IMG/VR virus record: IMGVR_UViG_3300031133_000426
DNA from: a virus
Length of the DNA stretch: 64,000 bases
Direction: 5' to 3' (one strand)
This document shows, piece by piece, positions 2,543 to 57,372 of the stretch (within the stretch, counting starts at the first letter, position 1; each line of letters begins with the position of its first letter). The position numbers and the translations under genes were made by a program. The notes under the pieces were generated by a model. The model had not been told where the DNA came from, made no database searches, and saw only the letters and a list, made by a program, of their open reading frames with translations.

Positions 2543-2868
2543 AATTTTTCTCCTTATATAATCGCACTAGATTTATAGAATATTATTATATATTGTTATT
2601 CATCAATTCATTTTAGGATAGCCTATCCTATTTAATTGGACTAATTATATCAAATTTTTTTACATAGAGCAAGGTTATGTTTTATTTTTTTCGACTTTGA
2701 TTCGTTCAAAATCAACTGTAACGGCCCAAGGTTAAACCACCAGAATATTCTACCTTACGGACTAATTTTTCATTAAAAGACTCATTGTATTTTTGGTTGA
2801 CAGAAAATATCTTTTTTGCTATTATGGTCCCATCAAAACGCAGCAGCTAACCTTTTTTGGGCAACATC

Positions 2869-3014
2869 ATGATCCAAGTTACCACTCCATAACGTGCTAT
2901 TATTCGCAACAGAAACAGTAGTCAACTGAGGCTACTATTTCTGTTAAAGAGATTTTAAACGTTCCAGATGCTGAAAAGGTTTATCAAGTTGCTGCAGTTC
3001 TGCTGCAATTGTAA
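2869..3014 (+). pseudogene. decayed copy of the MTQVT family (30361, 56142)
   Basis: ATGATCCAAGTTACCACTCCA-TAA-CGTGCTATTATTCGCAAC aligns to ATGACCCAAGTTACCGCTCTC-GAA-CGTGCTGTTATCCGCAAC; later frameshift restores VKEI..P...QV.AV.L; CATCAAAACG-type promoter upstream. Confidence 0.75.
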
Positions 3015-3095
3015 TAATCAGGGAAACAATAAAAACACTACCTGCCTATTGAATACCTTGCTATTTATAATCTATTCTCTGACAGGAAATTAAGT

Positions 3096-30200: not shown

Positions 30201-30288
30201 AGCCTTTCTCCATTATTTCATATACAATACCAAACTTTATCTTTTTTTCAAGAACATTTGCCTTTTTTCTATTTTTCAAAAATATTTC

Positions 30289-30335
30289 TTGACCATAAAT
30301 GTGTTTTTTGATATTATAGACACATCAAAACGAAG
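30289..30335 (+). promoter_or_regulatory. representative sigma70-type early promoter with conserved initial-transcribed motif
   Basis: TTGACC-17nt-TATTAT-AGACAC-ATCAAAACGAAGC; same layout at 33408, 41901, 55490, 56070, 59149. Confidence 0.85.
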
Positions 30336-30360
30336 CAACCAACCTTTTCGGAGATACACC

Positions 30361-30795
30361 ATGACCCAAGTTACCGCTCTCGAACGTGCTGTTATCCGCA
30401 ACATCGTTGTTGCTCAATCGGTTGAAGTTCTCATCAAATCCATCAGCTTGGGGCCAGAATCTGTAAAAGATACTCAAGTTAACGCTGTCCTTCTTAACTT
30501 GAAAAAGAAAGGCTTGGTAGTGGTTGTTGCTCATGTTGTAGCTTTGACCGACGAAGGTAAAGCTGTTCATGACCGCGAGTTCCCTGTCGCCAAAGACCTT
30601 GAGACTCTTCGCCATGAAAGCAATCTTGAACTGAACAAAGAACGTCCAATGTCGGTCGAAGAACTGGTACTGACCAATCGCCTGATTGATGTTCGCAAAG
30701 CGGCCCATAAAATCGACATCATGCTCGAAAATCTGCGTTTGTCGCTGATTGCCGAAGAAGTCGTTGATAATGCCGTTGCCGAAATTGCTGCTTGA
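30361..30795 (+). CDS. MTQVT family, possible winged-helix protein
   Basis: QVNAVLLNLKKKGLV...LTDEG wHTH-like; strong similarity to 56142. Confidence 0.75.
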   Translation: MTQVTALERAVIRNIVVAQSVEVLIKSISLGPESVKDTQVNAVLLNLKKKGLVVVVAHVVALTDEGKAVHDREFPVAKDLETLRHESNLELNKERPMSVEELVLTNRLIDVRKAAHKIDIMLENLRLSLIAEEVVDNAVAEIAA

Positions 30796-40991: not shown

Positions 40992-41897
40992 ATGTCTCTC
41001 ACAAAAGATAACATTATCAAGCGATTTCATGAGAAACATGGCAACCGTTATGACTACTCCCTAGTTAATTACATTAGCTCAGTGGATAAGTTGACTATTA
41101 TTTGTCGTGAGCATGGTCAATTTGAACAAGTATTCGCGTCACATGTTCGTGGTCGTGGGTGTCATGAGTGTGCGAAACAACATCATCATACACAAATTAC
41201 AATGCTTGAAAATTTTAAAAAAGTTCATGGAGATACCTTCGACTACTCAAAAACAGTTTTTAAAGGTGTTAGAAAATACATTACCATCACTTGCCGAATT
41301 CATGGCGATTTTGAGCAACGTGTGTATGCTCATTTTCAGGGCAATGGATGCAAGCATTGTACTGATGTTTCCCATCGATTAAATATGGATTCTGTTCTTG
41401 ATTCATTCAAATCTGTCCATTCTGACTCTTATGACTATTCCTTGGTTGATTATAAAAACGCTAGGACTAAAGTTTCTATTATTTGTCAAAAACATGGTGT
41501 ATTTAAACAGCTACCCCGTGATCATGTTGCTGGTAAAGGCTGCCCAAGTTGTAAATCGTCGAAAGGTGAACGCAGGATTCGTGATATTCTTGATCGTCAA
41601 AAAGTTGAGTATGAAGAACAGTTTAAAATTTGCAAAAATCCTTCTACTGATTTCTTTTTGAGGGTTGATTTTTATATTCCTTCTATGAATAGCGTTATTG
41701 AGTTTGACGGTTATCAACATTTTAAAGCTGTTGCTCATTTTGGCGGTGATGAAGCTTTGCAAAAAAATCAAGTAAGGGATAAAATTAAAAATGATTTTTG
41801 TGCTGAAAATAACATTGATATGCTTAGAATTTCTTACTTGGAAATCAATGATGTAGAAGATATTGTTTCTTCTTTTTTGACAAAAAATCCAAAATAA
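40992..41897 (+). CDS. homing-type endonuclease: 3 Zn-binding repeats plus Vsr/DUF559-like nuclease
   Basis: Three HGxxYDYS...CxxHG...H...GCxxC repeats; LRVDFYIP...IEFDGYQH; paralog of 778-1887. Confidence 0.8.
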   Translation: MSLTKDNIIKRFHEKHGNRYDYSLVNYISSVDKLTIICREHGQFEQVFASHVRGRGCHECAKQHHHTQITMLENFKKVHGDTFDYSKTVFKGVRKYITITCRIHGDFEQRVYAHFQGNGCKHCTDVSHRLNMDSVLDSFKSVHSDSYDYSLVDYKNARTKVSIICQKHGVFKQLPRDHVAGKGCPSCKSSKGERRIRDILDRQKVEYEEQFKICKNPSTDFFLRVDFYIPSMNSVIEFDGYQHFKAVAHFGGDEALQKNQVRDKIKNDFCAENNIDMLRISYLEINDVEDIVSSFLTKNPK

Positions 41898-42189: not shown

Positions 42190-42274
42190 GCCCGGTTGGT
42201 GAAATCGGTAGACACAGAAGACTTAAAATCTTCCGGCGAAGGTCGTGCCAGTTCGAGTCTGGCACCGGGCACCA
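42190..42274 (+). tRNA. tRNA-Leu (TAA), copy 1
   Basis: GAAGA-CTTAAAA-TCTTC; long variable arm; CCA. Confidence 0.97.
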
Positions 42275-47937: not shown

Positions 47938-48123
47938 ATGACAACTCAACATTCAGAAACATCCGTAGTTCCAACCGGCCCACTGGATGATCTAGTAGCT
48001 GACCTTGATGCTGCACAACTCAAGTCTTTGGTTCTTCACTTGTTTTCTACCACTAAAAACCCCGCTTTTCGTGCTAACGTGAAAGCATGGCGTAAAAGTC
48101 AGAATCTTCCAAAAACTGTTTAA
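47938..48123 (+). CDS. hypothetical protein
   Basis: Promoter; terminator. Confidence 0.6.
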   Translation: MTTQHSETSVVPTGPLDDLVADLDAAQLKSLVLHLFSTTKNPAFRANVKAWRKSQNLPKTV

Positions 48124-48140
48124 TGATTAATTGATCATAT

Positions 48141-51629: not shown

Positions 51630-51707
51630 AAAATTCAACATTTATTAAAATATAGTACCAACACTTGAAAGGCTTGCAGCGATCTGTCTCTTTTGCTATA
51701 ATAACAA

Positions 51708-54603: not shown

Positions 54604-54745
54604 TAGTGTGTAATAATATTATGTTTAATGGTAAAGGCTTCAAAACCCAATAAATAGTCAAAAAAGAGGTTGTTTGCTTTTCTCTTCTTTGATATACTTG
54701 TCTCATCAAAACGAAACAACACAAATAACGGTTAGGAGATACAAA

Positions 54746-55014: not shown

Positions 55015-55263
55015 ATGCCAGCAAACACTACTGATTTCATTTTCAAAGGTGCTGACTATTTCGTTGCTATGCTGGATCATGGTGGTGTTCGCATTGGCCT
55101 TGTAGAATCCTACGCTACCGATTTTCCTGCAGATCATGAAATGTTCAACATGGTAGTGGCTTGTGGTCAGTCGGGCGATGAAGAAGCTATTGAAGCACTC
55201 TCTGACGAGATCCATGTTATCCATCAGCAGGGCGGTGATTGCCGCGTTTTGATTCAAGCCTGA
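55015..55263 (+). CDS. acidic small protein
   Basis: Promoter; GAG SD. Confidence 0.65.
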   Translation: MPANTTDFIFKGADYFVAMLDHGGVRIGLVESYATDFPADHEMFNMVVACGQSGDEEAIEALSDEIHVIHQQGGDCRVLIQA

Positions 55264-55441
55264 TAATTTTCTTCATTGTAAACTGGGTTTACATCAATAT
55301 ATATAGGGTATTAATTATGAACAAAAAAGTCTTGTAGAGTGGGGATTGCTACAAGATCAAGATCAGAGTATTGATTATGATTGGGAATATGCAATCAATA
55401 TTATAAAAAATTCTCGTTGAAAACTTTGAAAATATTTAATA

Positions 55442-55561
55442 CCCCTCACTTTGCTGGGGGTTTTTTTATTATTTCTAAAATAAAGCTTTTCAAATAAACT
55501 ATTTTTTGATATTATAGACACATCAAAACGAAGCAACAAGCCTTCTCGGAGAAAGACCATG
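55442..55561 (+). repeat. terminator+promoter+leader unit, direct repeat with 56011-56144
   Basis: CCCCTCACTTT..TGGGG.TTTTTT...AAAATAAAGCTT.TCAAATAAACT.TTTTTTGATATTATAGACACATCAAAACGAAGCAA...CCTTCTCGGAGA..ACCATGAC. Confidence 0.85.
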
Positions 55562-55963
55562 ACCACTAATTCGCCCATTTTTGACACCTTGAATCTTCTT
55601 CAACAAACTGCAAAACGTCATTGGGATGCACTTAAAATTGATGCTATCTTTTATGCCGAAGGGAATCCAGAGCATATTGAATTGCTTAATTCTTTTCAAA
55701 AATTGGACTCTGATATTAAATCTGTCATTTCCAAATATTGCTCGTATCTTGAATCTGATAATAAAATGCTTGAAGAACTTACTTCAGAAGAGTGGAACGC
55801 TATCGACTTAGCTTATACTATTAATTATAACTATTTGGAAAACCTTTTTAAAAATATGCGGCTTCATAGTGTCCCTAACAAAATTAGTGCCAATGTTCAG
55901 GCTGATATTAATCAAACCTATAAAAATGTAAACGCTGTAAAAATGTTTTTTATGGGTAGATGA
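55559..55963 (+). CDS. hypothetical protein flanked by direct repeats
   Basis: GGAG SD; unrelated to the MTQVT family despite the same leader. Confidence 0.7.
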   Translation: MTTNSPIFDTLNLLQQTAKRHWDALKIDAIFYAEGNPEHIELLNSFQKLDSDIKSVISKYCSYLESDNKMLEELTSEEWNAIDLAYTINYNYLENLFKNMRLHSVPNKISANVQADINQTYKNVNAVKMFFMGR

Positions 55964-56010
55964 TTCAATATCTTCCATCGGGATTTAATTCTCGCTAAAC
56001 CTTTGAATAG

Positions 56011-56144
56011 CCCCTCACTTTATTGGGGCTTTTTTATTTGATTTTTTCTTATTCTTTCCAAAATAAAGCTTGTCAAATAAACTGTTTTTTGATATTATAG
56101 ACACATCAAAACGAAGCAAACAACCTTCTCGGAGATACACCATG
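56011..56144 (+). repeat. second copy of the terminator+promoter+leader unit
   Basis: See 55442. Confidence 0.85.
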
Positions 56145-56585
56145 ACCCAAGTTACCGTTCTCGAACGTGCTGTTATCCGTAACATCGCTGTTTCAACTTC
56201 TGTTGCAGTGCTTGTTAAAGAAATCAGCAGTGGCCCGGAAGCTGTCAAAGACAACCAAGTCAACGCTGTTATCCTGAATCTGAAAAAGAAAGGTTTGGTG
56301 GCTCAGTCTACCCCAAACGTAGTTGAACTGACTGCAGATGGCTTGGCTGTCCATGCAGTAGAATTCCCTACTCCAAAAGATCTCGACACCCTTCGTCATG
56401 AAAGTAACCTTGAATTGAACCGCGTTCGCCCAATGTCGGTCGAAGAACTGGTGCTGACCAATCAGCTTGTTGACCTTCGTACTGCTTCGAACAAGATTGA
56501 TGCCATGATTGCAGCTTTTCAATTGCGGTTGATTGCTGATAAGGTTGTAGAAGATGCCGTAGCCGATATGAATCTGGCGGCTTAA
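56142..56585 (+). CDS. MTQVT family, possible winged-helix protein
   Basis: Paralog of 30361. Confidence 0.75.
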   Translation: MTQVTVLERAVIRNIAVSTSVAVLVKEISSGPEAVKDNQVNAVILNLKKKGLVAQSTPNVVELTADGLAVHAVEFPTPKDLDTLRHESNLELNRVRPMSVEELVLTNQLVDLRTASNKIDAMIAAFQLRLIADKVVEDAVADMNLAA

Positions 56586-56709
56586 TCAGTATCAGAATCA
56601 CATAAATGGGCTTCGGCCCATTTTTGTTTTGTATCCAGATAAAATTTATTGTCTTGTTGTTTTTATATTGTTATAATGATCTTATTGAATACAATGGTAA
56701 TCCAATCAT

Positions 56710-57372
56710 ATGCCATCCACTAACATTTACGAAAATTATTCTAAACAAGAAATGTTGGATGCTGCTTCTTTAATGCCTCTCGATCATTTGTTTACGAAAA
56801 AAATGGCTCGCTTGATTAATGCTTATAAAAATAATTATGTTCATTATCAATCCATCTACTCTGCTCAAAATGCTTTGAAATTATTTAATAAAGCTGTCTT
56901 AATGAATAGTAATATCATTAAGAAACTTGGTAATGGCGGATTTTCTTTTGTCTATGAAGGCATTGATAATCTAGTTTACAAATTAAGCCTTTCTAATGAG
57001 CACGAAGATGCTTGGTTGTTTTATGCAAGATCTTCAAAAAAAATAAATAATACTTTGTTTCCTATTATCCATCAGTTAAATGTATATAATCATGACTATT
57101 GCTGTAAAATGGAAAAATTAACAAAGCTTGATTTAAGATCAGCTGATAAACAAACTTTGAAAGCTATTTCAATTTCTATTTTGAAAAAAGATATTGATTC
57201 TTCTTTTCACTTGATTAATACAGTTGGATTAGTTGATTATGATTCTTACAGTCTTTGGTCTGCTAAACTATATACTATTATGAAAAGGCATACTCATCTT
57301 CATTTTGACTTTCATCAAGACAATTTAATGCTTCGTGGTCAACATCTGGTAATTACAGATCCCTTATCCTGA
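56710..57372 (+). CDS. protein-kinase-like (ELK/APH-type) protein
   Basis: KKLGNGGFSFVY (Gly loop), VYKL, MEKL, DFHQDNLM (catalytic loop), VITDP. Confidence 0.7.
   Translation: MPSTNIYENYSKQEMLDAASLMPLDHLFTKKMARLINAYKNNYVHYQSIYSAQNALKLFNKAVLMNSNIIKKLGNGGFSFVYEGIDNLVYKLSLSNEHEDAWLFYARSSKKINNTLFPIIHQLNVYNHDYCCKMEKLTKLDLRSADKQTLKAISISILKKDIDSSFHLINTVGLVDYDSYSLWSAKLYTIMKRHTHLHFDFHQDNLMLRGQHLVITDPLS

Follow-up and report, generated by a model that had tools for sequence, protein, structure and literature searches.

Direct repeats of a predicted terminator-promoter-leader unit bracket a single ORFan in an uncultured phage of about 498 kb

The DNA considered here, referred to as the window, is a 64,000-nt stretch that is 100% identical to a 497,857-nt JGI metagenome contig and represents an uncultured phage of ~498 kb. 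Toward its right end, several small genes follow one another on the plus strand. These include an 82-aa ORFan (55015-55263), which is a conserved upstream neighbour in this region; gene X (55317-55420), which is the broken remnant of a 65-aa ORF; a 134-aa ORFan (55559-55963); and the 147-aa MTQVT gene (56142-56585). The 134-aa ORFan is the sole gene between two direct repeats, R1 (55409-55564, 156 nt) and R2 (55987-56147, 161 nt), the second of which heads the MTQVT gene. Beyond MTQVT, a terminator, a promoter and a 220-aa gene (56604-57372, plus strand) make up the next variable slot. The 220-aa protein weakly matches a PHROG with a protein kinase annotation, and in relatives the slot 3' of MTQVT is either empty or taken up by a gene of 95 aa (minus strand), 79 aa or 51 aa.

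The genes of the surrounding region are small and lie on one strand, and seven tRNAs and several homing-endonuclease genes occur among them. No Pfam family was assigned at E <= 0.001 to 31 of the 40 ORFs scanned, and none of these 40 ORFs matched an integrase, transposase or recombinase family in Pfam. Terminator-like sites are about twice as frequent as in shuffled sequences (25 vs. 11.4 ± 3.5). The T4-like genes of the window are accessory only, namely RnlA, which is about 30% identical to its counterparts in T4-type phages, and Tk, which is at most 49% identical to those of known phages; no core gene lies within the window. Among the 50,697 phage records of INPHARED, positions 54.5-58.8 kb had no DNA match in either the near or the distant mode, and tblastn searches of the same collection found no match for a 409-aa protein or for the MTQVT protein. 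Scans of IMG/VR with both proteins and with the leader pattern described below likewise gave no match, and a leader-pattern scan of the JGI metagenomes returned one locus, L022 (related sequences are referred to by such numbers throughout).

In a gapped local alignment, R1 and R2 have 134 matches, 11 mismatches (92% identity) and one 14-nt indel, and the longest exact run is a core of 33 nt (55499-55531, identical to 56082-56114). When gaps are excluded, a repeat search of the window pairs 55461-55564 with 56044-56147 at 90% identity. A preliminary description had placed the two units at 55442-55561 and 56011-56144. They are indeed present and are slightly longer, and the order of elements that it had given, from the terminator hairpin through the SD, agrees with the sequence. 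Each copy begins with the last 12 nt of the upstream gene, followed by a hairpin and T-run, a -35 element, a TG-extended -10 element, a leader, the SD GGAGA and ATGACC.

Specifically, alignment and inspection of the promoter and hairpin divide R1 on the plus strand into the gene-X tail (55409-55441), a terminator hairpin (about 55442-55460, with a T-run to 55467), the -35 TTTTCA (55487-55492), the TG (55507-55508), the -10 TATTAT (55510-55515), the leader (55516-55547), the SD (GGAGA, 55548-55552) and ATGACC (55559-55564). The gapped alignment places the corresponding elements of R2 on the same strand, with a copy of the gene-X tail (AAT TCT CGC TAA, 55987-56009), a hairpin (about 56010-56029, with a T-run to 56035), a 14-nt insert, the -35 TTGTCA (56070-56075), the -10 TATTAT (56093-56098), the leader, the SD and ATGACC (56142-56147). 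Both copies have an N17 spacing between -35 and -10, a TG and an AT-rich upstream stretch, and the -35 of R1 is degraded relative to that of R2. The leader begins CATCAAAACGAAGCAA in both; it is transcribed and conserved over ~35 nt (TATTATAGACACATCAAAACGAAGCAACCAACCTTCTCGGAGA). The predicted hairpins are modest, with energies of -7.6 to -11.7 kcal/mol and 10-nt loops. Variants on the left of R1 (TTTTCA at 55487 and the A at 55502, in ACTA) and on the right of R2 (GCAAACAACC, GGAGATACACC and CAAGTT) mark the two copies. At its outer ends the duplication has non-homologous joints, which fall within the final codons of gene X on the left and at the 6-nt ATGACC common to both genes on the right.

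Gene X is intact in the sibling strains L030 and L034-L036, where it encodes 65 aa (in L030 at 1949-2146). Its ATG corresponds to window position 55317 and its TGA to 55418-55420. In the window, 94 nt have been lost between two 10-nt repeats, AAAAAGTCTT, and the frame is shifted; in strain L032, codon 8 is a nonsense codon. Gene X has been inactivated twice independently, and so illustrates on a small scale how rapidly an ORFan can decay. No homologues of the remnant came up in a protein search, and a pattern scan of the JGI metagenomes gave no match. A relationship between the remnant and the 3' end of the 134-aa gene was ruled out, with an alignment score of 35 compared to 30 ± 5 for shuffled sequences. 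The last codons of gene X, N-S-R-stop, form the left 12 nt of R1 and are copied in R2 behind the 134-aa gene. Because the gene-X tail lies inside both copies, the duplicated unit spans from within gene X to ATGACC.

For the 134-aa protein, neither Pfam (above the curated cut-offs) nor PHROG gave a match, and the Atlas gave no lead. Its AF2 model is an all-helical bundle of low confidence (pLDDT 60.6) and is too weak for a structure search. A single homologue, 75% identical in amino acids, was found among 5.8 billion proteins. It is encoded on L015 in another context, behind a tRNA and a different promoter, and with the start ATGACTACT. The dN/dS between the two genes is 0.23, and on this measure the 134-aa gene is under purifying selection. 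Comparison of the 134-aa and MTQVT proteins by BLASTP gives E=11. This rules out the possibility that the two genes are diverged duplicates and bears out the earlier claim that the same unit stands before two unrelated proteins.

The MTQVT family comprises 32 metagenomic homologues and has no Pfam family. The model of the 147-aa protein (pLDDT 81) combines a winged helix N-terminal domain with a long C-terminal helix, and its best structural matches are MarR-family regulators, which are weak (E 2e-4, TM about 0.4). The window contains further copies of the MTQVT promoter and leader. The repeat search recovers one at 30263-30366 with 80% identity, where a promoter half had previously been noted at 30289-30363. 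Together with a paralogous 144-aa MTQVT gene (30361-30795), this copy occupies 30263-30795 on the plus strand; the proteins encoded at 30361 and 56142 are 66% identical, and the DNA is 80% identical over 256 nt. The terminator of this copy is not common with R1 and R2. A third copy of the promoter and leader, 61% identical over 2771-2874, precedes an MTQVT pseudogene (2771-3020 in all, the gene part from 2867, plus strand). The pseudogene has a stop at codon 8 followed by a frameshift, and its promoter and leader are well preserved. The MTQVT protein of L019 is 68% identical, while its leader hardly varies between the -10 and the ATG. Conservation is much stronger in the promoter and leader than in the coding sequence, a pattern suggestive of autoregulation or of control at the RNA level. 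In addition, nine promoters on the plus strand of the window have a -10 followed by CATCAAAACGAA, where none would be expected. It is conceivable, if quite unlikely, that the promoter-leader is an operator or RNA-level control element of the MTQVT paralogues and that insertions at this unit, joined at the start codon, place foreign ORFans in a single autoregulated early regulon. Such an element would constitute a homology-guided 'promoter-capture' platform in ~0.5-Mb phages.

Contigs with MTQVT homologues fall into five lineages of the region, and the part of the window covered by their comparison is about 48-64 kb. Synteny is lost in the slot that separates a conserved 44-aa gene from MTQVT. 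This slot is empty in L019, contains the 82-aa gene in L004, L018 and the L009 clade and an unrelated 87-aa gene in L022, and in the window contains the 82-aa gene, gene X and the 134-aa gene. The MTQVT promoter follows directly on the 82-aa gene in L004, L018 and the L009 clade. A single copy of the promoter-leader, a different terminator of their own and no 134-aa gene were found in L004/L007/L018, the L009 clade, L019 and L022. R1 and R2 have in common a number of derived states that are absent from every orthologue, namely AAAG, CAAATAAACT, the hairpin CCCCTCACTTT and the gene-X tail. Because these states are common to R1 and R2 only, the two copies reflect a duplication within the lineage of the window rather than a merely conserved consensus. 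Of the two, R2 has the promoter and leader closer to the orthologous single-copy promoters.

Some of the contigs with MTQVT homologues are very large. L022 (Ga0308158_10000001), with a reported length of 1,859,102 nt, holds a region syntenic with window positions 49.6-56.5 kb, and two contigs of 677,834 and 773,483 nt carry further MTQVT homologues. As single phage genomes, contigs of 677,834-1,859,102 nt would be larger than any known phage, and chimeric or concatenated assembly is an equally possible explanation for their length. The L009 contig of 349,999 nt also encodes a tubulin/FtsZ-family protein (PF00091, PF12327; L023:20952-21362), ~11 kb downstream of the compared region.

Gains and losses of genes were best resolved in the clade L009-L017, the contigs of which are 94-100% identical, so that the junctions can be read directly. 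L010 lacks a 124-aa gene of L009 (event A) and instead has a hybrid promoter with the -35 of the left promoter and the -10 and leader of the right promoter; the crossover lies between the -35 and -10, within a 34-nt overlap. A 176-aa gene of L009 is absent from L011 (event C), where a hybrid terminator with a 19-nt overlap (GGGCTT..GCCC-T7) is found. A 112-aa gene of L009 is absent from L017 (event E), where the promoter is again hybrid, with a stem-loop between the -35 and -10 and a 20-nt overlap. Event D is the replacement of a block bounded on the left by a promoter, SD and ATG and on the right by the next -10. In L011, moreover, a 44-aa gene took over the promoter and ATGAA of a 74-aa gene, which is the same 'promoter capture' as at R1. 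The remaining events are of other kinds. They include the loss of 127 nt from within a 79-aa ORF at the microhomology ACTCCA (event B), the insertion of a DUF723 endonuclease gene and a 44-aa gene between a terminator and a start codon (event F), and a deletion leaving a 3' ORF remnant, plus a mosaic ORF (event G). A 3' ORF remnant also lies at window position 54628, where L004 has a 127-aa gene. Overall, regulatory repeats exchanged in register account for about half of the events, and about half occurred elsewhere. For RB49/phi1, 10 of 14 such events were reported, which is close to the proportion of roughly half seen here (PMC2839356).

The DUF723 endonucleases are a second source of variation in the same region. 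Genes of this homing-endonuclease type follow a 113-aa gene in L017 (1392-2327) and L018 (1672-2421), at a position where the window has a metallophosphoesterase. Their relatives in the window lie at 778-1887 and 40992-41897.

A candidate for the collapsed allele expected from recombination between R1 and R2 is found in L003, a 1,481-nt Logan contig from SRR8869671 that is without the 134-aa gene. Its order is the end of gene X, the left part of R1, the 33-nt core, the right part of R2 and MTQVT, exactly as predicted for an R1 x R2 crossover. In its flanks, L003 has no SNPs compared to the L001/L002 strain, which carries the full allele, and it has the same two SNPs relative to the window as L001. 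An old lineage that predates the insertion was ruled out as the source of L003, given the absence of flank SNPs to L001 while R1 and R2 differ by ~8%. If L003 is real, it therefore represents a recent R1 x R2 deletion. However, its diagnostic variants are 35 nt apart, and every 31-mer of the join is also present in the full allele. Since Logan assemblies use k=31, a de Bruijn mis-join at the 33-nt core could produce the same contig. Four further Logan contigs end precisely at 55531, which is where breaks would be expected if both branches are present. Judged from these sequences, the collapsed allele appears somewhat more likely to be real than to be a product of assembly.

A comparable type of gene turnover has been described in the T4-type phages RB49/phi1, T4/PST and KVP40/nt-1, where the units concerned are known as PeSLs (Arbiol et al., 2010, PMC2839356; Comeau et al., 2014, PMC4122927). 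The statement in the preliminary description that T4-type phages shuffle genes through PeSL cassettes is thus published. In these phages, an ORFan is lost or gained when the composite terminator/promoter motifs on either side of it recombine, possibly via mini-circles (PMC2839356), and in the 248-kb vibriophage nt-1/KVP40 the stem-loops have the consensus A3-4G3-loop-C3T3-4 (PMC4122927). The units at R1 and R2 are alike in being composites of ~100-150 nt that run from an upstream stop codon through an AT-rich stretch, a stem-loop and a sigma-70-like promoter to an SD and start. They also precede ORFans in a hyperplastic region, do not involve an integrase, and enclose a single ORFan where a relative has one chimeric copy. 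Many terminators of the window have the form A3G3-loop-C3T3-4 and promoters the form TTGnnn-N17-TAnnAT, as in nt-1/KVP40. The differences are that the genome of the uncultured phage is roughly double that of the largest phage for which PeSLs are published, and that its unit has a conserved leader of ~35 nt common to the promoter class, with the stem-loop upstream of the -35. Overall, a predicted early promoter, a predicted terminator stem-loop, a stop-to-start extent and chimeric single cassettes in relatives are all found for R1 and R2. The case probably belongs to the already known PeSL mechanism and leaves the concept unchanged.

Two other known systems bear a more limited resemblance to the locus. 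The integron resembles the array described here in stringing together single promoter-adjacent genes, and in both a gene could leave as a circle and enter again at a repeated site. In contrast to the integron, with its IntI and attC/attI sites, no tyrosine recombinase was found among the 40 ORFs and no attC-type imperfect palindrome is found. In addition, each cassette here has its own promoter, and the junctions fall at variable points in homologous promoters and terminators and are driven by homology. Morons, reportedly a subject of work by Juhala et al. and Hendrix et al. in 2000, are self-contained promoter-gene-terminator insertions in lambdoid and other tailed phages. As with a moron, a single extra gene with its own promoter and terminator lies here between genes that are adjacent in relatives. 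Morons, however, bring their own signals and lack long flanking direct repeats, whereas the unit here duplicates that of the resident neighbour and so forms a substrate for recombination.

Taken together, it is likely that R1 and R2 are a PeSL-type, recombination-prone regulatory cassette and that the 134-aa newcomer was gained with the duplicated cassette, with homologous turnover that proceeds without an integrase. The cassette, consisting of the terminator hairpin, a sigma-70-type early promoter, the leader, the RBS and the start, would natively be that of MTQVT. The slot 5' of MTQVT may have gained gene X first and then the foreign 134-aa gene together with the second copy of the cassette. 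In this arrangement, the 134-aa gene would be insulated by the terminator and expressed from the promoter and leader of the resident, a 'promoter capture', provided that both promoters fire. Given 92% identity and an exact core of 33 nt, general homologous recombination of the phage or host can cross R1 and R2. Such a crossover would excise the 134-aa gene as a circle of ~580 bp with one chimeric cassette, or re-insert the circle, and no dedicated integrase would be required. The non-homologous outer ends imply that the first insertion took place via illegitimate joints or from a donor that carried the cassette. The duplicate may thus have originated by integration of a circle or donor already carrying the cassette or by two staggered illegitimate joints, and the form of the outer ends favours at least one illegitimate step in its origin. 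Elsewhere in the region, small genes would turn over by the same kind of exchange at further promoters and terminators, as well as by illegitimate deletions and homing endonucleases. Breakpoints in intergenic DNA are also expected from selection alone, but the chimeric, in-register junctions argue against this as the whole story.

The evidence for illegitimate joints could also be read more broadly, with the repeats as no more than the footprint of an insertion instead of a working site of recombination. The body of the 134-aa gene would have entered by two staggered microhomology joints in replicating concatemers, and later turnover would have been mostly illegitimate. Joints at ATGACC and in the gene-X tail would then have duplicated 156 nt, similar to a long target-site duplication. 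The fact that both outer ends of the repeat are non-homologous fits this reading, as does the presence of ATGAC as a native sequence in both genes, the L015 homologue starting with ATGACTACT. Deletions at microhomologies are also frequent, as seen in the 94 nt of gene X, the 127 nt at ACTCCA and the 3' ORF remnants. Nevertheless, only the origin of the repeats is accounted for in this way; the three in-register chimeric promoter and terminator junctions in relatives and the join of L003 exactly in the longest identical block are left unexplained, and as an alternative to PeSL-type recombination the footprint seems unlikely. The two readings are compatible if an illegitimate origin was followed by homologous turnover. 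A purely regulatory explanation, in which R1, R2 and the copy at 30263 are simply one promoter-leader class, for example an MTQVT operator, and recombination plays no particular part, would draw on the far better conservation of the promoter and leader than of the coding sequence in L019 and on the nine promoters with a -10 and CATCAAAACGAA where none is expected. It is very unlikely to suffice, because R1 and R2 also share an unconstrained spacer, the loop of the terminator and the gene-X fragment, none of which occurs in the orthologues, and because other lineages have no 134-aa gene at the orthologous site. Constraint and recombination can act together, as sequence kept alike by constraint supplies the homology on which recombination draws.

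Finally, the window is a metagenomic contig, and repeats of ~150 nt can confuse short-read assemblers, so that a mis-join might have set the 134-aa gene between two similar promoters. This can be considered most improbable. The same arrangement of R1, 134-aa gene and R2 is found on three contigs of 0.2-1 Mb. Of the independent k141 and JGI contigs, L032/L033 cover gene X, R1 and the 5' end of the 134-aa gene, and L001/L002 cover its 3' end, R2 and MTQVT. With three large contigs and both junctions covered, the arrangement is independent of any single assembly. Additionally, R1 and R2 differ at 11 sites and by indels, so that they can be distinguished within a single read. As a separate observation, the left ends of L001/L002 (window position 55643) and the right ends of L032/L033 (55632 and 55618) are breaks within the same ~25 nt inside the 134-aa gene. 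They come from two independent assemblies of one sample and may be explained by a coverage gap or strain heterogeneity; the repeats do not explain them.

PeSL-type recombination at R1 and R2 would extend this picture of gene turnover to a clade of uncultured phages of about 350-500 kb or more. In turnover of this type, each newcomer arrives insulated and expressed. The region provides unusually clean natural junctions: promoters or terminators are chimeric in three cases, a promoter has been captured in one, and one contig is a candidate for the collapsed allele. Such exchanges would help to explain how long, ORFan-rich early regions of very large phages are built and pruned without integrases.

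The preliminary description had gone further, regarding the 134-aa gene as a snapshot of shuffling and the whole window as an integrase-free array of cassettes. The first of these views agrees well with the relatives that are without the gene, the three chimeric junctions and the candidate collapsed allele in L003. The second holds in that no integrase family was found in the 40 ORFs, regulatory DNA appears to recombine at the slot and three junctions in relatives are chimeric, but it is over-generalised, as the comparison with relatives spans about 48-64 kb of the window and about half of the differences lie elsewhere. Other repeat pairs that it had listed as bracketing genes do exist. However, the pair at 47.6k/49.4k consists of paralogous promoter-plus-microprotein genes, and that at 42190/42760 is a duplicated tRNA-Leu. 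Among these three, R1/R2 is the only purely regulatory pair that brackets a single gene. The third pair listed there is a promoter-leader at 51691/52651, and a terminator pair also occurs at 48129/49351. One small gene of this part of the window, encoding 61 aa (47938-48123), has a 114-aa relative in L010 that is an internal tandem duplication of the whole domain (reverse complement of L024, 7267-7611), and the same gene persists in L009 as a 3' remnant only.
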